Origin: an uncultured Lentimicrobiaceae bacterium
GTDB lineage: Bacteria; Bacteroidota; Bacteroidia; Bacteroidales; 4484-276
Reading direction: 5' to 3'
DNA: 64,000 nt
Assembly (NCBI GenBank): GCA_964593705.1
Contig: CAZQIV010000015.1
Span: 11,454 to 75,453, forward strand
The position numbers and the translations under genes were made by a program. Below, one piece after another: positions 3,173-56,878 of this stretch (position 1 is its first letter; each line of letters opens with the position of its first letter). The notes beneath the pieces were generated by a model. It did not search any database. It was not told the DNA's origin and was given only the letters and a program-made list of their open reading frames with translations.

Positions 3173-3232
3173 GCCTGCAATTTTTTGCTCAAATTGTAGT
3201 TTTATCAGGGCTTAAGAAAATTATCATTATTA

Positions 3233-4033
3233 ATGAAAAACCTCGTATTCGTCCTCACTTCAAGCTTTCTATTGTTACTGTCCAATGCTTCGGGTCAGGA
3301 CTTTGTTTTTAGGGAACTCGAAAACAACGCCTTTCAGGCGGGGGAAAGCCTAAAATATAAGGTGTATTATGAGTCGATGCTAACAGGCAAAGTAAATGCA
3401 GGTACTGCAATTTTGGAGGTAAAAGAAAGCAACCGGCGTTTCTACGACAGAGAAACTTACCATATTTCTGGAATCGGAAAATCAAATGCTGCCTTCGATA
3501 TGTTTTTCAAGGTAAGGGATAAGTACGAATCTTATGTTGACAAACAAGGCCTTTTCCCATATTTATTTATCAGGAAAACCAAAGAAGGTGGTTATGTTTA
3601 TAATGATGAGGTTTATTTTGATCATGAAAATCTGACAGCGAAAAGCTCCCGCAAAACCAAAAAGATAACTTCATATATTCAGGATATTGTTTCCGCTTCC
3701 TATTATACCCGTACACTAAGTGCTGATACCCTGGAGGAAGGGGATTACATTTCTGTCAATTTTTTTCTGGATGACTCGGCCTATATTTCGGTTATTCAGT
3801 TTGAAGGCCGGCAAAATGTGGAAACGGAACTCGGTGTTTTCAGGTGCCTTACCTTTAAGCCCATGGTTGCAACCGGTGAGGTTTTCAGCAATTCATATCC
3901 CATGACTCTTTGGATTACCGATGATGAAAACAAAATGCCTGTTCTTGGGAAATCAGCCGTTATTGTTGGGTCTGTAAAAATGGAACTGATAAAATATTCC
4001 GGGTTAAAAAATCCTGTTAAGGCTCTACATTAA
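3233..4033 (+). CDS. DUF3108-like secreted protein
   Basis: 266-aa ORF with an N-terminal signal peptide (MKNLVFVLTSSFLLLLSNASGQ). The body resembles the DUF3108 family (beta-rich, 'GESLKYKVYY...GKVNAGTA'). Family assignment is from memory only. Confidence 0.6.
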   Translation: MKNLVFVLTSSFLLLLSNASGQDFVFRELENNAFQAGESLKYKVYYESMLTGKVNAGTAILEVKESNRRFYDRETYHISGIGKSNAAFDMFFKVRDKYESYVDKQGLFPYLFIRKTKEGGYVYNDEVYFDHENLTAKSSRKTKKITSYIQDIVSASYYTRTLSADTLEEGDYISVNFFLDDSAYISVIQFEGRQNVETELGVFRCLTFKPMVATGEVFSNSYPMTLWITDDENKMPVLGKSAVIVGSVKMELIKYSGLKNPVKALH

Positions 4034-4117
4034 TTTGAAAATTAAAGCCGCTTCGCGGGAGTCACCCTCCAGACAAAACAGGCAGCACCCATCTATAAAT
4101 CAAAGAAAAAAGTTATC

Positions 4118-4182
4118 ATCGAATTACACTAATTAATCAAATTATTACCTGCCTTTGGCAGGTACAATTCGTGTAATTCGAT
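4118..4182. repeat. Nested palindrome upstream of hydE
   Basis: A 12-bp outer stem (atcgaattacac / gtgtaattcgat) encloses an inner hairpin (acctgcc-ttt-ggcaggt). The word 'catcgaattac' recurs in the tandem repeat at 39344-39642. Confidence 0.7.
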
Positions 4183-4341
4183 CAATTAGATGACAAAAAA
4201 ATATCGTTAACATGTTAGCATTAGTGACTTTTTAAGAGCCTAGTAGAGTAATTTGAAGCTTGCTTTTACAACACCGGAATTTATTAGCTATTTAAAAAAA
4301 TATCATTGAGTTTAGTCTGAGAATCCCACTAATATTGAGGT

Positions 4342-5400
4342 ATGGATTTTACAACACTTACAAAAAATAAAATTTTAGAAGCATTATCGCTGGAAGGGGA
4401 GGCGCTACAATTGCTTTACGATTACGCGGCACAGGTAAAACAGCGCCATGTTGGCAACAAAGTGTATTACCGGGGACTGATTGAATACTCGAACCGCTGT
4501 GTGAAAAACTGCTTTTATTGCGGGGTGCGGCGCGACAATAAAAATGTGGATCGCTATACCCTCGAAGACAGTGAAGTGATTGCAGCGGCAAGGCTGGCCC
4601 ACAAAAAGCAGTTTGGCTCGCTTGTGTTGCAATCGGGCGAAAGGTGTGATAATTATTTTGTGGAGAAGGTGGCTTTTTTACTGCGCGAAATTAAAAAGGA
4701 AACGGGGGGCGAGATGCATGTAACCCTTTCGATGGGCGAGCAAAGCCGGGAAACGTATGATCTGTGGCGCGAAAGTGGCGCCCATCGCTACCTGTTGCGC
4801 ATAGAGGCATCCAATCGTAAATTGTATAAAAAACTGCATCCCTATGATGATTTGCACAGTTTTGATAAAAGAATTGAAGCCCTGGAATTGTTACGCGATA
4901 CCGGATACCAGGCAGGAACAGGTGTAATGATCGGCTTGCCCTTTCAAAGCCTGGAAGATCTGGCTAACGATTTATTGTTCATTAATAAAGCGGATGTGGA
5001 TATGGTGGGGATGGGTCCTTATATTGAGCACGAGGCCACGCCCTTGTTTCGGTATAAAGACCAACTTCTGCCCGAAGAAAAGCGTTTTGAGTTGTCGATG
5101 AAAATGGTGGCTTTGCTCCGCATTTTGATGCCAGACATCAACATAGCAGCAACTACTGCCATGCAAACGCTGCATCCCCGGGGTCGCGAGTTTGCGCTGA
5201 AAATCGGAGCCAACGTCATTATGCCCAATCTAACGCCCCTCAAGTACCGCGAAGGATACCTGCTTTACGAAAACAAGCCCAATATTCACGAAGAAACGGA
5301 TGTAAGTCTCGAAAACCTCCAACACTCCATTGAGCAGGCCGGGTGCGTTTTGGCTCTTGGCGAGTGGGGCGATTCAAAGCGATTTCGTGAGAGGGGGTGA
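4342..5400 (+). CDS. hydE: [FeFe]-hydrogenase maturase HydE (radical SAM)
   Basis: 352 aa with the CX3CX2C motif 'CVKNCFYC'. It is colinear with HydE-type biotin-synthase-like proteins ('YYRGLIEYSNRC', 'GTGVMIGLPFQSLEDLANDLLF', 'NIAATTAMQTL', 'GANVIMPNLTP'). Confidence 0.85.
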   Translation: MDFTTLTKNKILEALSLEGEALQLLYDYAAQVKQRHVGNKVYYRGLIEYSNRCVKNCFYCGVRRDNKNVDRYTLEDSEVIAAARLAHKKQFGSLVLQSGERCDNYFVEKVAFLLREIKKETGGEMHVTLSMGEQSRETYDLWRESGAHRYLLRIEASNRKLYKKLHPYDDLHSFDKRIEALELLRDTGYQAGTGVMIGLPFQSLEDLANDLLFINKADVDMVGMGPYIEHEATPLFRYKDQLLPEEKRFELSMKMVALLRILMPDINIAATTAMQTLHPRGREFALKIGANVIMPNLTPLKYREGYLLYENKPNIHEETDVSLENLQHSIEQAGCVLALGEWGDSKRFRERG

Positions 5401-5501
5401 TTTCACTAAAAACGCGATAGTAGCTAATACGAAAGTAATTTGTTTAAAAAAACAACGTTTTAGAAGCAAATTGAAAACATTTTGTTATTATTTTATAAAC
5501 C

Positions 5502-6167
5502 ATGACAGCCATTGAATTTGTAAGTGATTTGATAATACCGCTTGGTCTTGACGACAAAATATCAACCGGTCTTCGGTACATGGATGAAAACCACGTTGCC
5601 CATCTTCCGGTTACCAATCAAAAAAAGTTTCTTGGAATTGTAGCCGAGGATGATTTGTTAATGATCGACAATCATGAATCAGCAGTGCATAATTTGGTTA
5701 GTACCTTGCAGCAGATTAAAATTGACCAGCACGATCACATTTATAATGCCTTTAAAATTATTTCCGAAAAACAGATTGGCTTACTTCCGGTTACCGACAG
5801 CGCTGATTTTTATCTTGGTTCTATATTGCGTGAGGACATGGTGGATGAAGCCTCGGAAATACTATCGGCTGGCAATCCGGGAGGGATAATTGTGCTCCAG
5901 GTAAGCGAAAATAATTTTTCATTATCAGAAGTTTCAAGACTGGTTGAGTCGAATGACGTTAAAATATTAAGTGTTGGAATCCGATCAGTTCCCGGCGCTT
6001 CACTATTGCATATTACCCTCAAACTTAATAAAATAAACATCGAACCGGTAATTCAAACCTTTAACAGGTTTCAATATGAAATAATTACTTATTTTGGTGA
6101 AAATGAAAAAGATGAAGCCTTGCTTCGCGAACGCTATGATTCGTTAATGCAATACCTTAACATCTAA
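5502..6167 (+). CDS. CBS-domain pair protein
   Basis: 221 aa. Two CBS-like segments ('HLPVTNQKKFLGIVAEDDLL', 'LLPVTDSADFYLGSILREDMV') are followed by a C-terminal ACT-like region. Confidence 0.7.
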   Translation: MTAIEFVSDLIIPLGLDDKISTGLRYMDENHVAHLPVTNQKKFLGIVAEDDLLMIDNHESAVHNLVSTLQQIKIDQHDHIYNAFKIISEKQIGLLPVTDSADFYLGSILREDMVDEASEILSAGNPGGIIVLQVSENNFSLSEVSRLVESNDVKILSVGIRSVPGASLLHITLKLNKINIEPVIQTFNRFQYEIITYFGENEKDEALLRERYDSLMQYLNI

Positions 6168-6183
6168 ATACACAAACCCGCCC

Positions 6184-6398
6184 CTAATTAGTGTCTGTCC
6201 ATAAAGTACGTCTTTTAGAAATTTCAATAGCCCCGTCCTTTAGGGCGGGGATTGAAATTTGAGCGTAAAAAAACCCCGCATTTTCGCCACGCCTTTGGCG
6301 TGGCGAAAATGCGGGGGTGGTAAGAACAACTTAATTATTCCCCGGGCTAAAGCCCGGGGCTAGTGAAAAACATTGACTTTATGGATCGACACTAATTA
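6184..6398. repeat. TIR-bounded composite of three GC-rich hairpins (MITE-like)
   Basis: The termini ctaattagtgtctgtccataaagt and gactttatggatcgacactaatta are inverted copies. Inside are hairpins at 6219-6260, 6274-6316 (20-bp perfect stem ccccgcattttcgccacgcc/ggcgtggcgaaaatgcgggg) and 6340-6359. Confidence 0.8.
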
Positions 6399-6442
6399 CC
6401 CCGCTTAGAAATTTAATTTACTTTTGGTTTTTTGCAATTGGA

Positions 6443-7912
6443 ATGTACATGAGATTTATTTTTGTATTGGTGTTTTTAATATCTGCACTGTTGTGCTTTG
6501 GCCAAAGAAAAGCAAATGGTGTTGCCATTACCGAAAACGACAGCATTTTTATCCATTCCGATCTCTCTGATTCTCGTGTACATTTTGTTATTGACACGAT
6601 TGTTCTTTGTGGAAACAAAACTACACACCGTTCAATCATATTAAGAGAACTTACTTTTTCTCAATCAGACACCATTTCAGCATTCGAATTTGTAAGCAAA
6701 TTAACCCGTTCGAGGCAGAACCTCCTGAACACATCTCTTTTTAACTTCGTTACCATGCACGATTCTGTAATATCAGGAAATGAATTCGCACACATACAAA
6801 TACACATTCAATTTATCGAGCGCTGGTATCTTTGGCCGATACCAATATTTGAAATTTCCGACAGGAATTTTAATACATGGTGGGAAACAAAAGATTTTAA
6901 CAGAATTTCTTATGGCCTTCTGCTTGTTAAGGAAAATATGAGGGGCCGGATGGAAACATTAAAAATGTTGCTGCGTTTCGGTTGGGACGAAACCTATCAA
7001 ATAGCTTACAATATTCCTTATATCAATAAAAAACAAACTTTTGGCTCCGGATTTGGAATGGGATTTTCTCAAAATCACGAGGTTGCTTACAAAACCGTTG
7101 GAAACAAACCTGTGAATGTAAGAGATAATAATGAAAACATTGTAATGCGGTTTTATTCTAATTTTAATATATCCCACCGACCATCATTTTATCAATATCA
7201 CTCCTTACAGCTTGCTTACAATTACTATGTGTTTGGCGATACTTTGCTCCAACTCAATCCGGATTATTCGTTCAACGGAAACAATGTAAATGAGTATTTA
7301 ACCCTTGATTATCGTTATATTTCCGATCACAGAGATTCAAAGGTTTATCCTCTTACAGGTGATTATTTTGAAGCAGCATTAACCAAAAGCGGGTTTGGGA
7401 TTTTTAAGGATGGAGATATTTCGATGATGAATATTACCGGTTCGTATCGAAAATATTGGGATGTTTCAAAACTATTTTACTTTGCAACTGATTGGACCGG
7501 AAAAATATCCACCTCACGAAATCAGCCCTACTTTTATCAGCAAGGGCTTGGATATGGACGTAATTATGTGCGGGGGTATGAACTTTATGTGATTGATGGC
7601 CAAAGTTATGCTTTATCAAAAAACACCCTGAAATTCAACCTTGTGCCGACAAGAGTAAAGGAAATCGGGTTTATCCCATCAGAAAAATTCAGTAAGTTAC
7701 ACTATGCTCTCTATCTAAACTGGTATATTGATGCAGGTTATGTTGATGATTTTAAGAATTCAGAAGGCAACGAGCTGGCCAATCAAATTCTGCTGGGAAC
7801 CGGTCTTGGATTAGACCTGGTCACCTATTACGATATGGTTTTCAGGGTTGAATTTTCGGTGAACAGCCAGGGAGAGTTTGGCGTGTTTTTCCATGTTGCA
7901 AATACTTTGTAG
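6443..7912 (+). CDS. Omp85/BamA-family outer membrane protein (POTRA plus beta-barrel)
   Basis: 489 aa with a signal peptide, a POTRA-like segment ('HRSIILRELTFSQSDTIS') and a long Y/F/G/N-rich region with alternating pattern typical of a beta-barrel. Confidence 0.6.
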   Translation: MYMRFIFVLVFLISALLCFGQRKANGVAITENDSIFIHSDLSDSRVHFVIDTIVLCGNKTTHRSIILRELTFSQSDTISAFEFVSKLTRSRQNLLNTSLFNFVTMHDSVISGNEFAHIQIHIQFIERWYLWPIPIFEISDRNFNTWWETKDFNRISYGLLLVKENMRGRMETLKMLLRFGWDETYQIAYNIPYINKKQTFGSGFGMGFSQNHEVAYKTVGNKPVNVRDNNENIVMRFYSNFNISHRPSFYQYHSLQLAYNYYVFGDTLLQLNPDYSFNGNNVNEYLTLDYRYISDHRDSKVYPLTGDYFEAALTKSGFGIFKDGDISMMNITGSYRKYWDVSKLFYFATDWTGKISTSRNQPYFYQQGLGYGRNYVRGYELYVIDGQSYALSKNTLKFNLVPTRVKEIGFIPSEKFSKLHYALYLNWYIDAGYVDDFKNSEGNELANQILLGTGLGLDLVTYYDMVFRVEFSVNSQGEFGVFFHVANTL

Positions 7913-8083
7913 CTGTGCAATTAAATGGATTCGAAATCAATAGAAAGGTTAAAGTGTTGAATTTTACATTAATGTTTTAAATTCACCTGATTAATAATAA
8001 GAAATTGTGTTGCCTCCAAGAGATAAATATTGGATATGTTTGCATTTTAAATGAACGTATTATCCGTAATAAATATTCAAACA

Positions 8084-16943: not shown

Positions 16944-17681
16944 TTATCCCGCATGGCGCTGCGCAAAGCAGCGTACCATTTCCAGGGTTTTGGTTTTTGC
17001 TTCCATAAATCCCATGTGGCCTACCTTACCCAAAATCAAAACTTCGCTATGTTGCGGCAAAATTGCCTGAGCCATTATATTTTGAACCGGTATTCTGGGA
17101 TCTTCTTTTCCGGCAATAAACAAAACCGGCACCACTGTATTTAAAAGCATTTCTATTTTCCCACTCCTGCCGCGCATGGCTTCAAGGGCTGCAATAATCC
17201 CTTTTGCAGGAGTTTCCGAGGCAATTTCCTGGAGCTTTGTAATTTCCGCATCAAATTTTTCCACATTATCTTCAGCAAATAAATCCGGGATAAATTGATT
17301 GATAAAACCTGCCTTATTAAGCTTTACAATATTAATGGAACGCCTCCTGTTTTCTTTGGATTCTTCAGTATCAGCCGATGCGTGGGAATGGAATAAGCCA
17401 AAAGCAGATAACATTTCAGGGTATTGCAATGCAAATTCAAGGCTTACATAGCCTCCCATCGAATGGCCTATCATAATACAGCGCTCCACCTGTAAATGAT
17501 CCAAAACGGCTTTCACCCAGCGAGCCATAATTTCCATAGTTAAGCTATCTTTATACACCGGCGATTTTCCATGCCCCGGAAGGTCGATGCAGATCACCCG
17601 AAAATCATTTGAAAGTCCTGCAACAAATCCATCCCACATTTCCAGCGATTCCAGGAATCCATGCAAGAATACAATGGGCAT
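16944..17681 (-). pseudogene. Alpha/beta hydrolase, 5'-truncated paralog of 21590..22390
   Basis: 245 aa, near-identical to residues 30-275 of track ORF 21590..22417. It lacks the N-terminal ~30 residues. Homology stops abruptly at ~17688, where a terminator-derived 19-mer begins. Confidence 0.7.
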
Positions 17682-21589: not shown

Positions 21590-22390
21590 TTATTTGGCTT
21601 GTGCCCGCTGCACAAAGCAGCGTATCATTTCCAATGTTTTGCTTTGGGCTTCCATAAAGCCCATGTGGCCAACCTTTCCCAAAATCAAAACTTCGCTATG
21701 TTGCGGCAAAATTGCCTGCGCCAAAATATTTTGAACCGGTATTCTGGGATCTTCTTTTCCGGCAATAAACAAAACAGGAACCACTGTATTTAAAAGCAAT
21801 TCTATTTTCCCACTCCTGCCGCGCATGGCTTCCAGGGCTGCAATAATTCCTTTTGCAGGAGTTTCCGAGGCAATTTCCTGGAGTCTTGTAATTTCCGCAT
21901 CAAATTTTTCCACATTATCTTCAGCAAATAAATCCGGGATAAATTGATTGATAAAACCTGCCTTATTAAGCTTTACAATATTAATGGAACGCCTCCTGTT
22001 TTCTTTGGATTCTTCAGTATCAGCCGATGCGTGGGAATGGAATAAGCCAAAAGCAGATAACATTTCAGGGTATTGCAATGCAAATTCAAGGCTTACATAG
22101 CCTCCCATCGAATGGCCTATCATAATACAGCGCTCCACCTGTAAATGATCCAAAACGGCTTTCACCCAGCGAGCCATAATTTCCATAGTTAAGCTATCTT
22201 TATACACCGGCGATTTTCCATGCCCCGGAAGGTCGATGCAGATTACCCGAAAATCATTTGAAAGCCCTGCAACAAATGCATTCCACATTTCCAGCGATTC
22301 CAGGAATCCATGCAACAATACAATGGGCATTCCTTTTCCGTGATCCGAAAAACTAATCCTGTGATCTTCAAATTTAATTATTTCATTCAT
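21590..22390 (-). CDS. Alpha/beta hydrolase
   Basis: Nucleophile elbow 'GHSMGG' and 'LLHGFLES'. The start is placed at 'MNEIIKFED' (22390), because the first 9 codons of the track ORF are a repeat module. Confidence 0.85.
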   Translation of the reverse strand: MNEIIKFEDHRISFSDHGKGMPIVLLHGFLESLEMWNAFVAGLSNDFRVICIDLPGHGKSPVYKDSLTMEIMARWVKAVLDHLQVERCIMIGHSMGGYVSLEFALQYPEMLSAFGLFHSHASADTEESKENRRRSINIVKLNKAGFINQFIPDLFAEDNVEKFDAEITRLQEIASETPAKGIIAALEAMRGRSGKIELLLNTVVPVLFIAGKEDPRIPVQNILAQAILPQHSEVLILGKVGHMGFMEAQSKTLEMIRCFVQRAQAK

Positions 22391-23958: not shown

Positions 23959-24651
23959 ATGAGCAATTTAACATTAAGGTACTCCTCAATTACCAAAAAA
24001 GTCATCATGGCTTTTGCGGGGTTGTTCCTGATTACATTTTTGTTTGTTCACCTGGGTATCAACTTCACGCTGTTGATTCCGGGCGATGAACGAGAATTTT
24101 TCAACAGGGCAGCACACTTTATGGGAACTTTTCCATTAGTAAAGGTATTTGAAGTGGTTTTGTTTGGTGGCTTTATCATCCATATTATATATGGTTTGAT
24201 ACTCCAGATTCAAAACTGGTTGGCCCGTCCGACGCGTTACAAAAAAGAAGGCTGGTCGCACACTTCGGTGTTTTCCAAATTTATGATCCACACCGGGATT
24301 GTTATTTTTATTTTTCTAGTTATACACTTGATGGATTTTTACATCAAGGCCAAATTCTTAGGAGAAGTTGAGCCAGTAACCTATGGCGAAGAAACCCTGC
24401 ATGACCTTGGTGCTCTGGTTATTTCAAAATTCAAATATTTGGGTTTTGTAATTGGATATTGCATTGCCTTTATTTTACTGGGTTTCCATTTGCATCACGC
24501 TTTTCAGTCGGCGTTTCAAACGCTGGGGCTGAACCACAGCAAATACACACCATTTTTAAAAGGATTGAGTACGATTGTTTCTATTGTACTTTTCCTGGGC
24601 TTTACATTTATTTCATTGTTTATTTATTTCAATCCTTCAATTCAAGTATAA
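23959..24651 (+). CDS. sdhC: Succinate dehydrogenase/fumarate reductase cytochrome b subunit
   Basis: 230 aa with five predicted transmembrane helices and conserved His residues. It sits immediately upstream of the flavoprotein subunit (Bacteroidota frdCAB-type order). Confidence 0.82.
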   Translation: MSNLTLRYSSITKKVIMAFAGLFLITFLFVHLGINFTLLIPGDEREFFNRAAHFMGTFPLVKVFEVVLFGGFIIHIIYGLILQIQNWLARPTRYKKEGWSHTSVFSKFMIHTGIVIFIFLVIHLMDFYIKAKFLGEVEPVTYGEETLHDLGALVISKFKYLGFVIGYCIAFILLGFHLHHAFQSAFQTLGLNHSKYTPFLKGLSTIVSIVLFLGFTFISLFIYFNPSIQV

Positions 24652-24663
24652 TTACTGTAAGTT

Positions 24664-26607
24664 ATGGTAAAATTAGATGCTAAAATTCCAGCCGGCCCTT
24701 TGGCCGAAAAATGGACAAAATATAAATCAGACCAAAAGCTGGTGAATCCCGCCAACAAAAGGAAGTTGGAAATTATTGTTGTAGGAACAGGATTGGCCGG
24801 AGCCGCTGCCGCTGCAAGTTTTGGCGAGCTTGGTTTTAAAGTAAAAGTTTTCGGAATCCACGACAGCCCCCGCCGGGCACACAGTATCGCTGCGCAGGGT
24901 GGGATTAACGCCACCAAAAATTACCGCAATGATGGCGATTCGGTTTACCGACTATTTTACGATACCATCAAAGGGGGTGACTACCGCTCTCGCGAAGCCA
25001 ACGTTTACAGGCTTGCCGAGGTGAGCTCCGAAATTATCGACCAGTGCGTGGCTCAGGGTGTGCCCTTTGCCCGCGAATACAGTGGTTTACTCGACAATCG
25101 TTCCTTTGGCGGAGCCCTGGTTTCGCGAACATTTTACGCCCGCGGACAAACCGGACAGCAATTGTTACTTGGTGCCTACGGCGCATTAAGCAAAGAAATC
25201 CACAACGGAAGCTGCGAAATGCTTACCATGCAGGAAGTGCTTGATATTGTAATCGTGGATGGCCGCGCCCGTGGTGTGGTTTCGCGACACAGCATTACCG
25301 GCGAAATTCAGCGCCATTCGGCCCACGCCATCGTTTTGGCAACCGGGGGCTATGGAAACGTTTTCTTCCTATCCACCATGGCCATGAACTCAAACGGCAG
25401 TGCTGCCTGGAGAGCCTATAAAAGTGGTGCCGTATTTGGAAATCCTTCTTTCACGCAAATCCACCCAACCTGTATTCCCGTTCACGGTGATTATCAGTCT
25501 AAGCTTACGCTGATGAGCGAAAGTTTGAGGAACGACGGTAGAATTTGGGTGCCGAAGAAAAAAGAAGATGCCGTAAAAATTCAGAAAGGTGAATTAAAGC
25601 CTACACAGATAGCCGAAGAAGACCGCGATTATTATCTCGAAAGAAGATACCCAGCCTTTGGTAATCTGGTGCCCCGCGATGTGGCCTCACGTGCTGCCAA
25701 GGAACGCTGCGATGCCGGAAACGGTGTAGGTAGTACAGGCTTGGCTGTTTATCTCGATTTTGAAGATGCGATAAAACGTTTGGGTAAAAATGTGATAGAG
25801 GCACGTTATGGTAATCTCTTCGTGATTTATGAGAAGATTGTTGATGACAACCCCTACGAAACGCCGATGATGATTTATCCGGCTGTGCATTATACCATGG
25901 GTGGCCTTTGGGTGGATTACGAATTGCAAACCAGCATTCCTGGATTATTCGCTGCCGGCGAAGCCAACTTCTCCGATCACGGTGCTAACCGTTTGGGAGC
26001 TTCTGCATTGATGCAGGGACTCAGCGATGGTTATTTTATAATTCCTTACACCTTGCAAAATTATCTTGCTGATCAGATCAATGTACCCTTTTTTAAAACC
26101 GATCTGCCCGAGTTCGACGCTTCCGAAAAGAAAGTGCGAGCTGAACTTGACAAGTTGCTCAACATAAAAGGAAAGCAAACGGTGGACACCTTCCATAAAA
26201 AACTTGGCCATATTATGTGGGATCATGTGGGTATGACGCGAAATAGAGAAGGACTGCTGGAGGCAATTACCATGATTCAGGACTTACGCAAAGAATTCTG
26301 GAAAGACGTGAAGATTCCCGGTGGGATTGATGGTAAAAATATGGAGTTAGAGAAAGCCTGGCGTGTGGCCGATTTTCTGGAGTTGGGCGAGCTGATGGCT
26401 CGTGATGCCATGGATCGTGAAGAGTCCTGTGGCGGACACTTTCGCGATGAACATAAAACCCCCGAAGGCGAAGCATTGCGCCATGATGATAAATACACCC
26501 ATGTTTCGGTGTGGGAATATAAAGGTGATGATAATGAGCCTGTACGGCACAAAGAGCCGCTCAACTATGAATTTATCGAAGTGAAAACAAGAAATTATAA
26601 AGTTTAA
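24664..26607 (+). CDS. sdhA: Succinate dehydrogenase/fumarate reductase flavoprotein subunit
   Basis: 647 aa with FAD-binding '[12 protein letters not shown]', '[11 protein letters not shown]' and 'SCGGHFR'. Confidence 0.95.
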
Positions 26608-26619
26608 AACAACATAGCT

Positions 26620-27378
26620 ATGGATTTTAATTTGAAAATCTGGCGTCAGAAAGATTCCAAATCCAAAGGAAGCTTTAAGACCTATGAGGTTAAGAATATA
26701 TCGGAAGACGCATCATTTTTGGAGATGCTCGACATACTCAACGAAGAGTTGGTGATGAAAGACGAAATGCCCATCAACTTCGAGAACGACTGCCGCGAAG
26801 GGATTTGTGGTACCTGTGGTTTGTACGTGAATGGCAGACCCCATGGCCCCGATACGGGCATTACCATTTGCCAGGTTCACATGCGCAAGTTCAAAAGCAT
26901 AAAAACCATTGTTATCGAGCCCTGGCGTTCAAAAGCTTTTCCTGTGCTCACAGATTTGATTGTTGACCGCTCAGCCTTCGACCGCCTGATTCAGGCCGGG
27001 GGTTATGTTTCGGCGCGCACGGGTGGTGTACCCGATGCCAACGCCATCCCCATTGCCAAAGATAAATCCGACGAAGCCATGGATGCTGCTGCCTGCATTG
27101 GTTGTGGTGCCTGTGTGGCGGCCTGTAAAAATGCTTCGGCCATGCTCTTTGTTTCGGCCAAGGTAGCCCAACTGGCACTATTGCCACAGGGACAAGTGGA
27201 AGCCAAACGCCGTGTACAAAAAATGGTGAAACAAATGGACATCGAAGGTTTTGGCAACTGCACCAACACCGGTGCCTGCGAAGCCGAATGCCCCAAGGAA
27301 ATTACGCTGGTGAACATTGCACGCCTGAACCGCGAATTTATTGGTGCCAAGTTGGGTGCCCAAAAAATGGCGATGTAA
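26620..27378 (+). CDS. sdhB: Succinate dehydrogenase/fumarate reductase iron-sulfur subunit
   Basis: Motifs '[10 protein letters not shown]', '[11 protein letters not shown]' and '[12 protein letters not shown]'. Confidence 0.95.
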
Positions 27379-27390
27379 TATATTATAGTT

Positions 27391-27988
27391 AGTCACCCCG
27401 TGAATTCTGGTGTCGGATGTACAATTCCTTAGGGATTTTGCCATCTTTTCACAAAGCTTTCACGGGGTGACTTAGGGAATGTGAAAAGTCATCCGATGAA
27501 TAGTGCATAAGCAAATGACACTATACTCATGGAAAAATTATAGCTTCCGGGAGTAATTCATCGGATGACTAAAAACCGGTAATCCTGGAAAAGCCATCCG
27601 ATGAATAGTGCATAAGCAAATGACACTATACTAATTGAAAAATTACAGCTTCCAGGAGTTATTCATCGGATGACTGAACACCGGTAATCTGGAATAGTCA
27701 CACCGTGAATTACCCTTGGACACAGCACTTTTCGCAAAAAGTAAGGTGCTGCTGCCCGGCAGTATTCACGGTGTGACTAAAAACCGGTAATCCTGGAAAA
27801 GTCATCCGATGAATACTGCTTAAGCAAATATCACTTTTCGCATGGAGACATTGAAACTCCCGGAAGTTATTCATCGGATGACTAAAAACCGGTAATCCTG
27901 GAAAAGCCATCCGATGAATAGTGCATAAGCAAATGACACCTTACGCATGGAGACATTGAAACTTCCAGGAGTAATTCATCGGATGACT
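27391..27988. repeat. Tandem array of six ~83-bp hairpin units (REP/BIME-like)
   Basis: Units at 27391-27472, 27488-27570, 27592-27675, 27696-27778, 27800-27883 and 27905-27988. Each has a 14-16-bp stem (e.g. agtcatccgatgaat / attcatcggatgact) around a ~50-nt loop. Units 2-6 are separated by the linker aaaaaccggtaatcctggaaa or a close variant (units 1-2 are joined by a different 15-nt linker). Confidence 0.9.
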
Positions 27989-28059
27989 GATTGCAAAGCA
28001 TGAAACTATTGTCCTTTTACGAAGCCCATTTTACCCTTAAAAGATAGGCGGATAGATCG

Positions 28060-31000
28060 TTAGTCTCCTTTAATAAACACCTTTTCAGAATAAACTACTT
28101 CTCCGGCTACTATCATCACAATATAAATACCGGTTTTCAGATTTACATGAAAAGCGTTTTGTTCTATGCCACTGATATTCTCCTCCAGGACGGTTTTGCC
28201 CATAATATCCGAAATAAGCACTTTTCCTTTTACAGCACCTTTTATGAGGATTTGTTGGCCATGAGCAGAAATTGAAATATTGCTTTGTTCCATAGTATTT
28301 TCCCCGATTCCAACCGTGTTCAAATGGAGTTTAAACCGTTTCTCATCATCATTGATATCCCAGGTAAACTCATAAGCTCCTCCCAGATAACTATCGGGAT
28401 GAAGCTTATGGAATTCTTGTGTTTTGGTGTCTTCCAGGATGGCTTCGGAAATATTTGCAATTTCTTTTATCCTGATGCTGTACATGCCATTTTCGTCGCT
28501 TTGGAAACCAAGCTGGATGTTTTCTGTTTCCGGGCGTACGTCAACCACGAGTTTGTTATTATTGGCGATGCTGTAAATTTCGGGCATGCCTTGTGTTCCT
28601 GAAAATAATTTCCAGGTATCGGTCTAAAGCTCAAATCCTGCCTGCGACTCATTATCGAAAAGCAATAACATATCATTCTTCAAACCAACATTATTGCTTG
28701 CTTCCAGGCGAATGCCATGGGAAATATTGTCTCCTCCCGATTTATAGTATGATGAAGTGTTTTCATGTGTACGAGCAGTGTTGTTGATAGTAAAATCCTT
28801 TGCAGTAGTTGTGTAAACAAAAAAGCCCTGCATGGGTGGCAGGTATTGTTGTCCGCCGTTTGTAGCGCCACTGCCGGACCATGTATCATAATGGCTGTTT
28901 TCGCTATCCCAGTAATATACTGCACCATAAGTTTCAACCAATACATCCCAGTCGATGGAAGACGGGTACGGATTTCCCAGAAGGTTCATTCCATCGTTAT
29001 CACCACCACCTGCCGATGTCATCGCTATGGTCTTCTCGCCGCTTGTAGGAGTTCCGGTAAAAGTATAAGTTGTCGCTTTTGATGTCGCCCAGAGGCCATA
29101 TCCTTGTGCAGGGATAAGTGCGGTTGTGGCTTGTGTTATATCTAACCATTCAGCACTGGCTTCATCCCAGGTTTGCAGAAAATCGCCATCAAAGGTATTG
29201 GCTGTGCTCACATTATTTGGTGCGGAAATTAGGTGCCACACATCCTCACTAATATATCGTTTTATGTCCACCGTTCCGTTGTTGGTGATTGTGCCGTCTG
29301 TGATAAGAGAGCCTGAGCCCGATGCATCACTTTCGACTGTAAGAGATGCTCCATCGTTAATTGTGAGATTGTTGCAGCTTGCTGTACCGCTAGCTCCGAT
29401 AATTGGTGCCGATGCCTTGGCTACAGTAGGAATTGTAACATCATAAGGTGAGGATGGAACATCGCTGACATTCCAGTTTTCTGCTGTGTTCCAGTCTGCG
29501 CTTTCAGAACCATCCCATACAATAGTGAATATTCCATCGTACTCATAGGCTCCAATATCTGTTGTGCCATATCTGTATACACCACGCTGATCGCTTGTTT
29601 GTGCGCCGGTATTTGTTCCGGCATCAATAGCAAAACTACCGGAGAGTAAGGCAAGTGTTTGAGATCCGTTTAAGGTGCTGTTGTCTGCCAGCGTTGTTGA
29701 AAGGTTGAGGTTTTGGTTGCCTAAGGCTGTGTTATTTCTGTTCCATGATGTACTTGATGTCCCATCTGCCTTGTAGTTGTAAAGAATATTCGTTGTAGCG
29801 GTAAATTTCCAATTTGAAGGAGAGCCACTTCCAGTTTGATTTTCAATAATATTATATCCATTATCAACCAATGTTCCTGCACTTTTAACATGATAATCTG
29901 ATGTGCCGTTGTTTGCGACAACCGTATTGCATATATTCAGTGTGTTCCCATTAATAAATATTCCATCGCCTTCAGATCCTGTGTTATTACAAATATTGCA
30001 GCCCTGTAATGTTACAGTACCAGTTCTATTTGAAATACCACCACCATAACCACCAACAGAACTATTTCCATAAATAGTAGGATTAATAAATGTTGAAGTA
30101 CCTTGATTGAGGAATCCTCCACCCCAGCTACTTGAGCCTGGTGCCGCATTATTACAAATTGTACTGTTTGTTACTGTTAGAGTACCATAAATATTATGAA
30201 TTCCACCTCCGGAAGAATAACTACCTGTTGTACTGTTATTACATATTGTTGAATTTGTTAGGGTAAGTGTTCCTTTATTTTTAATACCACCTCCCGCGCC
30301 CGACTTCTTTCCATGTCGAATTGTAACATCTTTAATCGTAACTATTTTGGAATAATTAATATAAAAAACACGATGTGTAGCAGTATTTTCCAGGGCATGT
30401 GCCTGGATTATAGTAGCTGCTGCCCCGGCTCCCAGAAAAGTGAGGTCTTTGTTTACCGTGAGTTCAGGTTCGGTATATGTCCCTTCTGCAATATTGATTA
30501 TATCCCGATCCTCAGAGGCAGCAATTGCAGCAGTTATAGTCGTGTAATCCCCACCACTTATTGCTACTTCGACTTGCTGTATAAAATCTACATCCAAATT
30601 ACTTTTTGTTGAATTTGTTACTCCGGACGCATCCCCCTCGTTGAAAGCAGTATTGTTGAACGCGATTCGCAGATTGGTGATGTCGTTGGTATTGTTACTG
30701 TTAGTGGCAGTTCCGGTGAGGGAAACACTTAGCTCTGTATCGCTGTTTTTGGTAATTACCATTGTTAATCCGGAAGGAACATTTGTTTCGGTGTACTTAC
30801 TGGTTGCAAAAGTACCAGTACTTCCTGTAAAATAATCTGATTCAGGATATTCTAAAGTAATCGTCAGACTATTTTCTATAGTTCCATTATTTGCTTCTGA
30901 TTCTTGAAAAACTTCAGAGTTGTATGCAAGTTTTGCCGATGCTTCTAAACATATGGAGTCGGATAGCCCCCATAATCAACTTCCCAATCTGATAATGGAG

Positions 31001-31265
31001 GAGTTTCTTGGTTGTCATCTGAGAAATATAATGTCAAACCACCTCCCCATATTTCCCAACGACTATTAGAGCTTTCATATCTCAAATAATACTCCTCGCC
31101 ATCTAATTTGTATTGAAGCTTGTTGTTGTATTGGCCGGCTTCAAAATAGAAGCCGTTTGCCCCTTCTCTACCTGCTTCGCTTACGAGATAACCGGTAGCC
31201 ATAAGGCTTGTGCTCATGGTTAAGGCCATTAGCAGGGTTAATAATTTTGCTGTTGATTTTTTCAT
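28060..31265 (-). pseudogene. Large parallel beta-helix (Pmp-like repeat) T9SS cargo protein, disrupted
   Basis: Three colinear ORFs make up the gene. 30945..31265 holds the signal peptide and is one frame off. 28624..30762 holds 'GGGIxN / NSTICNN' beta-helix repeats, and its reading frame stays open upstream to ~30975. 28060..28587 holds the T9SS CTD and is in frame, but separated by TAG at 28624-28626. Confidence 0.7.
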
Positions 31266-31530: not shown

Positions 31531-31614
31531 AGTCATCCGATGAATAGCGCTTAAGCAAATGACACCTTGCGCATGGGAAAATTACTGCTTCCGGGAGTAA
31601 TTCATCGGATGACT
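31531..31614. repeat. Solo copy of the 27391-27988 hairpin unit
   Basis: agtcatccgatgaata...taattcatcggatgact followed by the linker fragment gaacaccggt. It overlaps the 3' end of the degraded gene at 31602-32052. Confidence 0.85.
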
Positions 31615-49574: not shown

Positions 49575-51425
49575 TTACCCCTTCTTTTTCCTGTGCAATT
49601 GAATAATCGAATTTAGCATGGCCTCCGTTTTTGATGCCCCTTCACCCAGCAAAAAACCAATTTGTTGTACCATCCCCAAATTCTGGTCGATAACTTCGGT
49701 TACCCTTTGAATAATTTGTTCGTTACGCACTTCAGGCGAAAACATATCCCTTACTATACCTCCAACCACTTTTTTATCTTTTATCGAAAATACACTTAGA
49801 TTTAAAAATGCTTCATCAATCTTAACATCCCTGCTCAGGATATTTTCGCCGGTAACAAGCACATTTTGAAACACTTTATAAAACTGCACAGGCACCAGGG
49901 TTTTAAGGTCGGCACCCCGAAGGCCGGGTATTATTTCATCTATGTCGCGGGCTTCGTCACCAAGGATTTCAATAAAACTGCGGTTTGAAGAAGTGATTTT
50001 TAACTTGTGATCGACAATAACCACGCCCGAAGGAATCTGATTCATGATGGCACGCGAAGTCTCCAGCTTGTCGTTTGTAAGTTCAAATTCTAACAGACGT
50101 TCTTTAAGTTCCTTTTTAAGATGCTCGATTTCTTTCTCTGATTTCGATTTCGAGTTGCGGAGTGTTTCGATGTATTTATTTTTATTTTTATTATTAAAAT
50201 CCAAACACATATCAGTACGTGTAATTCCATTTGCCACAGCTTTTGCAAACGACTGGCAGGAATCAAAGCCGCAACTGGTACACATCCCGGTTGATTCCCC
50301 GGATTTATCAAGCAAGGTCAAAATTTCATCCACCCTCGAGGCGGCAGGTTCTTCTGCACGCTGATCATCAGATTTAAACCGGCAATTCAGATTTAAGTCC
50401 TTGAATTTCTCCATTTCAAGCTGCCATTTCTTTTCATCCAGATTTTTTATTCTACGTTGGGTATAGTCTAAAACCTGGGCTGTCCTTAAATGTTTGTCAC
50501 CCTTTGGCGACATGCCCGGACCCATCATACATCCTTCGTTGTAAAACACATTAAAATGCTTCTGTACCCGTTCAGTGTTTTTTTCAAACGATTCGATGGC
50601 ATTCAATGAGGATATTTTTCCTTCGGCGCTTATTACCCTTCCATTAAGAAAACTTTGATCGATTGAAGCTGCTTCCAAAATGCCGCTGCTTAGTGGGTAT
50701 AATGAACCAAGATTGCCATGGGGCGGATCAAAATCAGAATATTCGAGTTGGCTTTCGTGTATGTCTTTGTCATCGAAAAGCTGCCTTAACTCGGCAAAAG
50801 TGAGCGCTGCATCAACCTCGGAATTTTCGTCAAATTCGCCCGACCAGAGTTTGGCCGCGATGCATGGCCCAACAAACACAGTTTTGGTTTGCTCGCCATA
50901 TACTGATTTTGCAACCCTTGCAGTTGCATCCATTGGCGAAATAACAGGGGTTAGATTTTTGGTGAGGTCGGGATGAAACTTACGAACCAACTCTACCACA
51001 GCCGGACAATTGGCGGTAATGTAATATTTTCCCCTGCTTTGTTCAAAAAGGGCTTTGTACTTTTGTGAAACAAGGTCAACACCAAAGGAAACATCCAGTA
51101 CAAATTCAAACCCGATCTGTCTTATCATCTCAACAAATTTGCGATAGTCAGTAATATCAGGAAATTCAGCTGAAACACTAGGGTCAACTAAAGCCGCAAC
51201 TTTATGCTCTGATTTTAGCAGGCTGTTAACTCTTGATTTTGAATCATAATATCTAATCCCATCACTTGAGCAGGCAGTAATACATGAACCACACCCAATG
51301 CATCGTTCAGGATCAATTTCGGGATGATCCTTGCCTACTTTTACAATAATGGCATGTACAGGGCAAACTCTTGCACAATGTAAACAATCAGTACATTTTT
51401 CAGGTATGATTTCGATCAGTGCCAT
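49575..51425 (-). CDS. hydS: Sensory-type [FeFe]-hydrogenase paralog with C-terminal PAS domain (HydS/HfsB-like)
   Basis: Two ferredoxin-type CX2CX2CX3CP motifs and an H-domain with 'ITANCPAV' and 'FVGPCIAAK'. Also carries the CX2CX4CX16C motif 'CTSCGFDSC...(16)...C', a coiled coil and a PAS domain ('IPSGVVIVDHKLKITSSNRSFIEILG'). Confidence 0.85.
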   Translation of the reverse strand: MALIEIIPEKCTDCLHCARVCPVHAIIVKVGKDHPEIDPERCIGCGSCITACSSDGIRYYDSKSRVNSLLKSEHKVAALVDPSVSAEFPDITDYRKFVEMIRQIGFEFVLDVSFGVDLVSQKYKALFEQSRGKYYITANCPAVVELVRKFHPDLTKNLTPVISPMDATARVAKSVYGEQTKTVFVGPCIAAKLWSGEFDENSEVDAALTFAELRQLFDDKDIHESQLEYSDFDPPHGNLGSLYPLSSGILEAASIDQSFLNGRVISAEGKISSLNAIESFEKNTERVQKHFNVFYNEGCMMGPGMSPKGDKHLRTAQVLDYTQRRIKNLDEKKWQLEMEKFKDLNLNCRFKSDDQRAEEPAASRVDEILTLLDKSGESTGMCTSCGFDSCQSFAKAVANGITRTDMCLDFNNKNKNKYIETLRNSKSKSEKEIEHLKKELKERLLEFELTNDKLETSRAIMNQIPSGVVIVDHKLKITSSNRSFIEILGDEARDIDEIIPGLRGADLKTLVPVQFYKVFQNVLVTGENILSRDVKIDEAFLNLSVFSIKDKKVVGGIVRDMFSPEVRNEQIIQRVTEVIDQNLGMVQQIGFLLGEGASKTEAMLNSIIQLHRKKKG

Positions 51426-51427
51426 AA

Positions 51428-51676
51428 TTATTTCAATAACTCTTCTTCGAGGATTTTCAGAATTTCATCTTCACCTACACGCTCATAGCGATGGTCGTTG
51501 ATTTTGAAACCGGGCCCATTTTCACAATTCCCAAAACAGTGTTTTCCTTTAAAGTTAACCTTATGTGTAAGTTGATTGTCTTCCAAAAACTTTTTCACAA
51601 TATACACCATTTGCTTATTGCCTCTTGCAAAACAAGAACTCCCAAGGCAAATTATCAGATCTTTCTTTTTTAACAT
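51428..51676 (-). CDS. Thioredoxin-like [2Fe-2S] ferredoxin (NuoE-fold, HfsA-like)
   Basis: 82 aa with a CX4C...CX3C pattern ('CLGSSC'...'CFGNC'). Its stop lies 3 nt from the hydS start. Confidence 0.72.
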   Translation of the reverse strand: MLKKKDLIICLGSSCFARGNKQMVYIVKKFLEDNQLTHKVNFKGKHCFGNCENGPGFKINDHRYERVGEDEILKILEEELLK

Positions 51677-51708
51677 ATCCTAACGAAGACTCAAATTTCT
51701 TTAACCTG

Positions 51709-51862
51709 ATTAATTCACAAACTCATTGAATTTGTGAATTAATCACCGAAGGCCGAAAATATTTATTTAAAATATTTTCGAGGGTTAATCCTCGAATTTC
51801 CTTTGGAAATTCGGCTCTGCAGGCTAAAAAGCCTGCAGAGTGAAAAATTCATGAATTTTTCA
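51709..51862. promoter_or_regulatory. Five consecutive palindromes in the divergent hydS / hydCBA control region
   Basis: P1 51709-51743 (attaattcacaaa-N9-tttgtgaattaat). P2 51754-51780. P3 51793-51813. P4 51815-51840 (ctctgcaggc-taaaaa-gcctgcagag). P5 51841-51862 (tgaaaaattca|tgaatttttca). A Bacteroidota -7-like box TAATTTTG lies at 51950-51957, 35 nt before the hydC ATG. Confidence 0.5.
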
Positions 51863-51992
51863 GATTAAAAAGCAAAGATCATAAAAAATATTTTAATAAT
51901 AGTTTAATGTTAAAAATTTAACAATGTGAAACAATTAACAAAAAAGTAGTAATTTTGTCATTGTTAAGCATAACTATTTAATTACTAATTGA

Positions 51993-52457
51993 ATGAATAA
52001 GATAGAGGAGGTGCTTCAAAACTTTCCGAATCACGATCGGGAAAATTTGCTCCCGATTTTGCAGGAAATACAAAAAGCCGAAGGATACATTTCGGAAGAT
52101 GCCGTAGTAAAAGTTGGGAGTTATCTAAATATTCCTACCAGTAAAGTGTATGCAGTATCCACCTTTTACGACCAATTTAGGTTTACAGATAAGGCAAAAT
52201 ACCAAATACATCTTTGCAATGGTACTACCTGCCATCTGGAGGGTGCAGGTAACTTGTTGAAGGCATTTGAAAAGCAACTGAATATTTCGTCAGGACAATT
52301 GACAAAAGACAAATTGTTTGGCATAGCTACCAAACCTTGCATGGGCGCTTGTGGTATGGCTCCGGTTGTTAAAGTAAATGAAAAATTTTATACAGGTTTT
52401 ACTTTGGACAGGGTACAAGAGCTAATTGCTTCGATAAAAGAAAGCGAGGGGGTGTGA
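51993..52457 (+). CDS. hydC: [FeFe]-hydrogenase NuoE-like [2Fe-2S] subunit
   Basis: 154 aa with 'HLCNGTTCHLEGA' and 'KPCMGACGMAPV'. Overlaps hydB by ATGA (52454-52457). Confidence 0.9.
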   Translation: MNKIEEVLQNFPNHDRENLLPILQEIQKAEGYISEDAVVKVGSYLNIPTSKVYAVSTFYDQFRFTDKAKYQIHLCNGTTCHLEGAGNLLKAFEKQLNISSGQLTKDKLFGIATKPCMGACGMAPVVKVNEKFYTGFTLDRVQELIASIKESEGV

Positions 52458-54397: not shown

Positions 54398-54429
54398 AGT
54401 AAAATTCATGAAGTTTCAAGTAAACGAAC

Positions 54430-54518
54430 ATAACGAATAATACCGGGCTTCGCTCGAGCATCCTCGAAAAGTTACGAAAATCAAGATTTTCTACTTTTCG
54501 GGACAATTAACCAATAAC
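54430..54518. repeat. Composite hairpin element E1, 'empty' form, in the hydB-hydA spacer
   Basis: ataacgaataataccgggcttcgctcgagcatcctcgaaaagttacgaaaatcaagattttctacttttcgggacaattaaccaataac. It is homologous to 56701-56797 and, in reverse orientation, to 61160-61271 and 62300-62432. Confidence 0.85.
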
Positions 54519-54531
54519 TCCAAAGCTTCAC

Positions 54532-56253: not shown

Positions 56254-56700
56254 AAGAGTATGGAAATTGGAGAATAAATAGAAAAGAAAACTTGATTATC
56301 AATAATCAAAAACGATTAATCTGCCGCTGGCCGGAAAAGCTCAACAACTAATAAAAGGTACTACTGCGAATTTAGTGGAAAGTAAAATATTAATCATGAG
56401 TAGTAAAATAGATTTCTCAGTCCCCGAAGTGTCGGGGCAGGCTGCAAACTTCTTCGAAATGACAGGGCTTTGGCGGGTTTGTTGGGGTGGTTGAAAGTGG
56501 GCGCTTCGCGCCCACTTTCAACCACCCCTTGTGGAGTCCTATCCTTGTGTTTTCGAACCGCCAACTGGCGGTGAGACCTACCTCGCCAACACCATTGCTT
56601 ACACTAACGGCCCGCTTCGCAGCGAGGCGAGCAAGGCGGGAATCTGTTTACGGTGATAGTAATTATTTACATCCACGAAAATGGTAATAGAACCTAATAT

Positions 56701-56797
56701 AATAACGAATAACTAATAATGCCGAGCTTTGCTCGGGCATCCTCGAAAAATTACGAAAATCAAAGATTTTCTATTTTTCGGGACCAATAACCATTAA
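56701..56797. repeat. Composite hairpin element E1, 'empty' form, upstream of the hydrogenase-kinase gene
   Basis: ataacgaataactaataatgccgagctttgctcgggcatcctcgaaaaattacgaaaatcaaagattttctatttttcgggaccaataac..., in the same orientation as 54430-54518. Confidence 0.85.
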
Positions 56798-56875
56798 CGA
56801 ATAACCAATAACCATTAACGAATAACCATTAACCAATAACCATTAACCAATAACGAATAACTAATAACGAACACC
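56784..56875. repeat. Degenerate heptamer microsatellite (NAWTAAC x ~13)
   Basis: caataac cattaac gaataac caataac cattaac gaaataac cattaac caataac cattaac caataac gaataac taataac. It ends 4 nt before ATG 56879. Shorter runs of the same words occur at 49531-49572, 54505-54518 and 32243-32275. Confidence 0.85.
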
Positions 56876-56878
56876 CCA

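Follow-up and report, generated by a model that had tools for sequence, protein, structure and literature searches.

What is the run of hairpins that follows sdhB in an uncultured Lentimicrobiaceae bacterium? The run lies in a stretch of 64,000 nt of contig CAZQIV010000015.1 (assembly GCA_964593705.1, positions 11,454 to 75,453 of the forward strand), here referred to as the window, and coordinates without a locus label are those of the window. A first-pass annotation, made from the sequence alone, had described six hairpin units at 27391–27988 and a solo unit at 31531–31614, and had offered three explanations for them: an mRNA 3′ stabiliser or terminator stack, a protein-binding array like the bacterial interspersed mosaic elements (BIMEs), or a structured RNA. 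All seven units were borne out by a covariance-model search and by folding. We consider it likely that the array brings together, at one locus, copies of a dispersed non-coding hairpin repeat, previously unnamed and widespread in Bacteroidota, and that this repeat is mobile DNA resembling either the miniature transposable elements bounded by inverted repeats (MITEs) or the REPIN/BIME arrangements of repetitive extragenic palindromes (REPs). Among the three earlier explanations the BIME-like array came closest. The family is new, but the kind of repeat (MITE, REP/REPIN-like) is known, and it is no new RNA gene.

Hairpin units downstream of sdhB

The array is placed between convergent genes, sdhB on one side and a gene for a cargo protein of the type IX secretion system (T9SS) on the other. 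It had been said to start 13 nt past the sdhB stop codon; 12 nt lie between them (27378 to 27391). The features of the locus are the following.

23959–24651: sdhC-like gene, upstream of sdhA
24664–26607: sdhA, with FAD_binding_2 and Succ_DH_flav_C domains
26620–27378, + strand: sdhB, succinate dehydrogenase/fumarate reductase iron–sulfur subunit, with Fer2_3 and 4Fe-4S domains, directly upstream of the array
27391–27472, − strand: u1, CCCCG stem version
27473–27486, no strand: u1–u2 junction, TAGGGAATGTGAAA, with only the terminal GAAA in common with the other linkers
27487–27570, + strand: u2, TCCGA stem version, covariance-model score 66.1 bits
27571–27591, + strand: u2–u3 linker, AAAAACCGGTAATCCTGGAAA
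27592–27675, + strand: u3, TCCGA version, C·A mismatch at stem position 3 (AGCCAT)
27676–27695, + strand: u3–u4 variant linker, GAACACCGGTAATCTGGAAT, the first part of which also flanks the solo unit
27696–27778, + strand: u4, CACCG version, interior a long imperfect palindrome
27779–27799, + strand: u4–u5 linker, AAAAACCGGTAATCCTGGAAA
27800–27883, + strand: u5, TCCGA version
27884–27904, + strand: u5–u6 linker, AAAAACCGGTAATCCTGGAAA
27905–27988, + strand: u6, TCCGA version, AGCCAT variant as in u3
28060–28587, − strand: convergent gene encoding a T9SS C-terminal sorting domain; 71 nt separate its stop codon from u6
31531–31614, + strand: solo unit, TCCGA version, with lead GGAAAA and tail TGAACACCGGT, then CTTTTC

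A covariance model built from 105 family members and searched over the 64-kb window with filters off matched exactly these seven units and nothing else. No known Rfam family was recognised: apart from one tRNA, Rfam 15 matched nothing in the window at gathering score, and the best hit over 27300–28100 was an animal microRNA model at E=0.37. The arm motif of the units occurs 15 times in the window, against 0.5 occurrences expected by chance; 14 of these are the arms of the seven units, and the remaining one (41399) is a chance occurrence.

The units are 82–84 nt long, and the period of about 105 bp reported earlier was recovered by Tandem Repeats Finder (4.8 copies with period 105 on 27483–27988), with a spacing of 96 from u1 to u2. 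The linker that had been taken to join all units is exact in three of the five junctions, at which AAAAACCGGTAATCCTGGAAA combines the right-flank tail of the family (TA...) with its left-flank lead (GGAAAA), but it is varied between u3 and u4 and unrelated between u1 and u2. When units are oriented by their flanks and loop, u1 points opposite to u2–u6. As a block, [u5 u6] copies [u2 u3] at 87%, and both contain the AGCCAT variant, which indicates that part of the array arose by block duplication.

Folding of the seven units gave terminal stems of 14–16 bp enclosing 52–54 nt, with minimum free energies of −24.5 to −42.5 kcal/mol, z-scores of −4.4 to −8.0 against shuffles, and about equal strength on both strands. 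As first described, three stem versions occur (TCCGA, CACCG and CCCCG), with both arms matched in each unit. The stems had also been called fully compensated, which is right for the 5-nt block of every unit but not for the whole stems of u3 and u6, where the mismatch is AGCCAT / ATGACT. The interior folds are unrelated between subfamilies, and a conserved interior RNA fold was rejected, since RNAalifold gave no covariation support (covariation term of +0.38) on nine related TCCGA units.

Could each unit be a small structured RNA gene, and the array a multi-copy small RNA locus? The folds are strong and statistically unusual, and the family is present in many genomes. On the other hand, there is no Rfam match even at E≤10, no promoter-like excess was seen, both strands fold equally well, and the interior shows near-neutral drift with no conserved helices. 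Nor do the units prefer one orientation relative to neighbouring genes (15 sense, 19 antisense), and the earlier suggestion of a structured RNA is left weak by all of this; we find an RNA gene scarcely credible.

Distribution and anatomy of the family

The pattern GTCAYNCSRTGAAT-N45–65-TTCAYSGNRTGAC was scanned against one genome per species of bacteria and archaea and matched at least 87 loci, spread over at least 37 assemblies (loci are cited here by L numbers, and results on the loci listed concern these 87). All matches listed are from Bacteroidota except two: one in an assembly labelled as a delta-proteobacterium, in which a typical unit is nevertheless present, and an Armatimonadetes palindrome that looks like chance. 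The carriers among the matches listed include Lentimicrobiaceae, Prolixibacteraceae, Salinivirgaceae, metagenome-assembled genomes (MAGs) labelled Odoribacter and Rikenella, Saprospiraceae, Chitinophagales and Cytophagaceae. A plasmid collection yielded no unit, and 2.9 million viral contigs, scanned with a looser superset pattern, yielded chance matches only. The arm sequence was not found in the published literature that we searched, and the surveys of REPs, MITEs and REP-associated tyrosine transposases (RAYTs) do not describe the family. A device specific to the sdh operon is thus not supported, as the same units occur in all these assemblies and the sdhB genes of relatives are followed by three units or none.

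We oriented 105 distinct units by flanks and loops. They have a common scaffold, A-GTCA-YNCSR-TGAAT ... ATTCA-YSGNR-TGAC-T, in which two arms of 15 nt in inverted orientation enclose a fast-drifting interior of about 52 nt; the left flank ends GAAAA-like and the right flank begins with TA. The 5-nt block is TCCGA in 54 units, CCCCG in 13, CACCG in 10, CCCGG in 9, TACGA in 5, CGCCG in 5 and of other kinds in a few. Nearly all units are intergenic (81/83). Loop classes are homologous across species, the loops of L038 and L052 being like those of the TCCGA units in the window, and one Lentimicrobiaceae MAG (CAZGAO) holds four subfamilies in a single genome. Arrays of 2–6 units were seen in the window and in L178, L035, L048, L052, L056, L061, L072, L086 and L093, and those of the window, L048, L052 and L086 are of mixed subfamilies. 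The first-pass annotation had allowed that the stem variants might simply be independent families. The stem versions are genome-wide subfamilies which do have loop classes of their own, but their arm scaffold, flank rule and linkers are held in common.

A CRISPR array was rejected, since the unit interiors, which would be the spacers, are 65–91% homologous to one another and solo and dispersed copies exist; Pfam domains of cas type were not found in the window. Where the two arms of a pair lie far apart, the unit has a nested insertion. In L085 (2927–3326) a CCCGG-type unit is split by an insertion of about 320 bp that bears the short repeat TTACGGTGCGCTGCACC twice.

The sdhB site across related lineages

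On four contigs whose SdhB is identical, the identical array is present in full or in part. In L178, with an SdhB 94% identical, there are three units, namely an orthologue of u1 (K1, at 4772–4853, followed by TTTTTTGTTTT) and, after it, a pair of TCCGA units whose linker is similar. Lineages with SdhB 93%, 92% and 89% identical have zero units and ordinary intrinsic terminators in place, such as AAACCGGCTTTGAGCAATCAGAGCCGGTTTTTTTT; the 92% lineage is MAG GCA_021740425.1, which has units elsewhere in its genome (L086 and L093). The unit number, which the first-pass annotation had proposed to compare between strains, is therefore 6, 3 or 0 at the orthologous sdhB site, and the array is lineage-specific and dynamic.

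Third-codon positions of the window and L178 agree at 70% in sdhB and at 61% in sdhA. The arms of u1 and K1, however, are identical at 29/30 positions with loops 79% identical, and the TCCGA units of the two lineages have arms identical at 30/30 positions with loops 65–76% identical. At a per-site identity of 70%, at least 29 matches of 30 would arise by chance with a probability of about 3×10^-4. Judged from this comparison, the arms are kept by selection or continuing conversion while the interior drifts at a near-neutral rate. Arms so much better conserved than neutral sites imply some partner protein.

The position of the array raises the question of whether it is a selected cis-acting RNA, that is, a hairpin stack in the 3′ untranslated region that terminates or protects the mRNA of sdhCAB or of the T9SS cargo gene, as REPs, BIMEs and some MITEs do elsewhere. 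We hold this to be rather unlikely. The array begins close behind the sdhB stop, and no terminator-like site was found in between, a case for which the first-pass annotation had allowed; relatives free of units have canonical terminators at the array position; the u1 orthologue in L178 is followed by TTTTTTGTTTT; read on the convergent gene's strand, TTTTCC comes after every hairpin of u2–u6; the stems are very stable; and 34 units of the family lie within 150 nt of a gene 3′ end. But the T-run side points towards the upstream gene 15 times and away from it 19 times, and tandem-gene contexts give 11 versus 19, so that terminator-like polarity is not selected, and a polarity rule was rejected. 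No intrinsic terminator was called in the array on either strand, and the loops are about 52 nt. Read on the strand of sdhB, TAAAAACC comes after the hairpins, with a T-run only at the u1 orthologue of L178, and u1 in the window has lost it. For a stabiliser any stable stem would do, yet the arms have an invariant sequence across a phylum, and neither role needs six units, given the three of a close relative and the lack of any in more distant ones. Perhaps a terminator or 3′-stabiliser role is plausible, going by sequence context, only as a side effect.

Pairing of the arms

The arm-to-arm compensation first noted in the window holds throughout the family. Across the 105 units, found with a pattern that fixed part of each arm and not arm complementarity, 97.6% of stem cells are paired, four stem positions are altered on both sides in 19–40 units, and the observed covariation score was reached by 0/500 shuffles. 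The single arm is itself dyad-symmetric (TCAY-NNN-RTGA, 11 bp), and its Y and R co-vary, with T..A in 60 units, C..G in 38 and mixed forms in 7, a co-variation for which a single ancestral split into two clades could account.

An 11-bp dyad of this kind recalls a binding site, and the units might be sites for a host protein rather than mobile DNA: a nucleoid-associated protein, a topoisomerase or a dimeric regulator, on the model of gyrase, integration host factor and DNA polymerase I at BIMEs. Besides the co-varying dyad, further perfect palindromes lie in the interior beside the arms (TTTTGCAAAA or TGCTTAAGCA, and also CCGG-centred boxes), the arms are constrained in orthologous copies, and neither strand nor orientation is preferred. 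However, no candidate binding protein was found, the co-variation within the arm may reflect no more than the ancestral split just mentioned, and double-stranded half-sites alone would not require a complementary central NNN, which does stay complementary. Protein binding is also compatible with spread by transposition, which is shown for the composite form described below. We regard binding sites in place of mobile DNA as quite improbable. The central triplets vary yet remain complementary, and a trans-acting protein, as proposed below for the mobile repeat, would therefore probably recognise the folded form.

Composite and hairpin-only forms

One sign of mobility comes from a related composite form. 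In several lineages the hairpin is contained in an element of about 140 bp, TGAGTCCRCTCCGAAAAG, hairpin, TA-N16, CTTTTCGGAGYGGAYTCA, with outer inverted repeats of 18–20 bp and TG..CA ends (TGAGTCCRCTCCGAAAAGT). Such elements were found in Bacteroidales MAGs (L037 at 2092–2222, and L060, L063, L066, L029, L055 and L059), and one MAG has four near-identical copies of about 140 bp at unrelated loci. Direct duplications of 3–5 bp (ATAT, TATT, ATT, TAAT, GTTT, ACCC and AAACT) flank 7/9 complete copies, the nine coming from five assemblies and the seven from three, whereas the chance probability of a 4-bp match is 1/256 per element. With these target-site duplications, the composite element is a genuine MITE, inside which the hairpin forms a module.

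The hairpin-only form is that of the window and of Lentimicrobiaceae-like genomes, often in arrays of 2–6 units with linkers of 14–23 nt. Solo and array units are alike in the lead GGAAAA and the tail TGAACACCGGT, and the copied entity is therefore at least about 101 nt long and retains a vestige of the composite architecture. It can be inferred from the arrays that mix subfamilies that hairpin-only units insert next to existing units. Short-read contigs break inside units in four assemblies (L003, L004, L179 and L187), the contig of L187 beginning within the solo unit.

In L046 (about 1700–1810) the outer arm TTTTCGGAGYRGACT stands after a different inner hairpin (CGGTCTGACGGCT ... AGCCGTCTGACCG), and the same outer arm occurs once, unpartnered, in a phage contig (L188, 3417–3435). 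Taken as sequence arrangements, these two cases suggest a modular superfamily with exchangeable inner hairpins.

Gene neighbourhood

An all-versus-all clustering of 818 open reading frames (ORFs) from the 87 loci listed revealed only SusC-like and T9SS-cargo families as recurring neighbours, and a recurring neighbour transposase was rejected on this ground; genes that are enclosed by two units are ordinary ones. The T9SS C-terminal sorting domain was found in 13/69 genes with their 3′ end facing a unit site and in 21/452 other ORFs of the loci listed (odds ratio 4.8, Fisher p=1.3×10^-4), a test that has to be read with crude gene calls, the clustering of T9SS genes and the long 3′ intergenic spaces typical of them in mind. 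The domain calls are from Pfam for five proteins, one of them below gathering score, and from an in-house profile for the rest. The loci concerned are L016, L026, L030, L038, L048, L052, L056, L065, L071, L091 and L093, together with the gene at 28060–28587 in the window. The units beside T9SS genes belong to different subfamilies, and thus they were not simply inherited along with gene duplicates.

A link with secreted-protein genes brings to mind the sites of a site-specific recombinase, attC-like or of inverton type, which would mark exchangeable or invertible segments, possibly T9SS cargo cassettes. The size of about 80 nt, the imperfect inverted repeat, the variable centre, the conserved pairing and the location after stop codons all recall integron attC sites, and the T9SS enrichment would fit with cassettes. 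Against this, no integrase or recombinase was found in the window or recurring in the loci listed, the attC core (RYYYAAC / GTTRRRY) is absent from the arms, the neighbouring genes lie in all orientations, and the six units 105 bp apart hold no cassette. The orientation of the loop relative to the flanks is constant in all oriented copies, which gives no sign of inversion, and an inverton was rejected for this reason. Recombinase sites are in our view a very improbable explanation.

It is rather unlikely that an undescribed system spanning the phylum has the hairpin as its cis-site, and that in this system a conserved protein which is neither a known RAYT nor a known insertion-sequence transposase recognises the folded arms, keeps them under selection in fixed copies, and spreads or maintains units preferentially 3′ of T9SS genes. 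Such a phylum-wide system would be the Bacteroidota counterpart of the REP–RAYT partnership with a different enzyme, or else it could be a domesticated hairpin element that takes part in the expression or diversification of genes for secreted proteins.

A RAYT was also considered as the partner. L040 contains, at 3779–4444, a RAYT-like (Y1_Tnp) gene with an in-frame GTAG-footed REP pair within its coding region (GTAGGGGCGCCCC... / ...GGGATTGCCCCTAC), which matches the description of subclass 2.4 TnpA-REP genes, and a hairpin unit lies 180 bp upstream of it, apparently by coincidence. The RAYT family of L040 was rejected as partner, for the L040 gene has its own GTAG-type REP pair and further loci of the family are free of units, as given below; the RAYT loci compared were of the subclass 2.4 type.

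A few other features of the neighbourhood were observed. Paralogous T9SS cargo genes in a Lentimicrobiaceae MAG (L026 at 1487–2386, L034 at 1533–2987 and L038 at 3225–8000) encode a low-complexity segment, PSNSPWRGRTD..GTGLCGGTP.., which looks like an in-frame insertion of another small repeat. In the window, 16957–17256 and 21606–21905 form a direct repeat, 93% identical and 4.65 kb apart, made of two alpha/beta-hydrolase paralogues around three genes, one of them a T9SS cargo gene; it is probably a segmental duplication. Beside the solo unit, a 106-aa ORF (30945–31265, − strand) matched only itself among 5.8 billion clustered proteins and is either an orphan gene or no gene. A cluster of [FeFe]-hydrogenase type at 49578–58867, with PAS/histidine-kinase-fused sensory forms and NuoE/NuoF-like subunits, is unrelated to the array.

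Proposed mechanism and significance

If the units are indeed a mobile repeat family, units of different subfamilies would insert beside an existing unit, and the array would then grow or shrink by unequal recombination or slippage. A trans-acting protein, either a transposase or a host protein, would recognise the arms, most likely as a folded hairpin, and so keep them alike, and the stem variants with matching arms would be subfamilies that kept pairing. Any effect on the mRNA of sdhCAB or of the convergent T9SS cargo gene, through a barrier to 3′ exonucleases, partial termination or RNase III cleavage, would be a by-product.

Several observations weigh against mobile DNA of this kind. Pfam searches detected no transposase, integrase or RAYT domain in the 50 window ORFs of at least 100 aa, and no such gene recurs near the units elsewhere in the loci listed. 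No insertion sequence with the same ends was found in the 87 loci listed, the window, the plasmids or the viral contigs, with about 0.7 Mb of carrier genome searched, and 80 further loci of the L040-type RAYT family (353 kb) contain zero units. No empty site was found for hairpin-only units of the window type, all contigs of the population carrying the solo unit, and the flanks of the hairpin-only units in the window show no visible target duplication. The strong arm conservation in fixed orthologous copies is atypical of purely selfish, decaying MITEs and points to a host-level function or continuing conversion. Moreover, because the scan pattern fixed parts of the arms, the variant spectrum and the covariation numbers are somewhat biased by the way of finding units.

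When Bacteroidota genomes and MAGs are annotated, such arrays should be masked as repeats and not be called RNA genes, CRISPR-like arrays or operon-specific regulators; the units also account for contig breaks in short-read assemblies. Small palindromic repeats have been much studied in Proteobacteria and scarcely in Bacteroidota. What makes this family notable is the combination of arms invariant across several orders, matched-arm subfamilies, two forms, arrays and a statistical link to T9SS cargo genes. It offers a tractable entry to the enzyme or host factor that handles the hairpins, and to the question of whether the hairpins influence mRNA 3′ ends in the phylum.

Comparison with known systems

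Integron attC sites are like the units in being folded imperfect inverted repeats of similar length, located past stop codons, with pairing better conserved than the central sequence. The units differ in that they have no attC core, no integrase and no array of co-oriented cassettes, and nothing like a cassette lies between tandem units.

Families of terminal inverted repeats have been tied to RAYT-like 'TIRYT' genes (Di Nocera 2013, PMC3733652), and 'atypical secondary structures' flank the subclass 2.6 TnpA-Y1 genes of Bacteroidetes (Quentin 2018, PMC6006769). Like the units, the repeats of these two groups are moderately abundant inverted repeats, some in dimers or clusters, without a GTAG foot, and reported in Bacteroidetes. 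The arm sequence is absent from two supplementary files of the latter study.

With the REP, BIME and REPIN repeats of E. coli, Pseudomonas and others, the family shares its short, non-coding, palindromic and extragenic nature. In both, two inverted conserved arms and a variable spacer form one long hairpin, and the arms are better conserved than the spacer; clusters and arrays are often located between convergent genes and past stop codons, and several subfamilies occur per genome. The units, however, have no GTAG or CGTC foot, their arms beginning with A-GTCA and ending with TGAC-T; the arms are just 15 nt long, each with a tiny internal dyad; and 80 loci of the Bacteroidota RAYT family that was tested hold no unit. 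The related composite form, moreover, has terminal inverted repeats and target-site duplications, which REPs and REPINs do not have.

The hairpin MITEs, such as Correia/NEMIS of Neisseria, ERIC, RUP, Nezha and the MITEs of P. gingivalis (for example BrickBuilt, PMC4596501), differ from the family in some respects. A search for a parent insertion sequence sharing their ends gave none, MITEs do not usually form head-to-tail arrays with linkers of 14–23 nt and mixed subfamilies, and the conserved hairpin is internal to the terminal repeats of the composite element itself. While most MITE clusters are genus-specific (PMC11602168), the unit family spans several orders of the phylum with invariant arms. 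In other respects they are alike. Hairpin MITEs are likewise 80–150 bp long, non-coding and intergenic, with terminal inverted repeats and short target duplications (the latter shared with the composite form); their presence or absence also differs among relatives, they break assemblies, and an RNA hairpin is expected when they are co-transcribed. The units themselves are shorter than 300 bp and non-coding, with inverted arms of 14–16 bp, and occur as dispersed copies with differences in copy number and presence, as MITEs do.

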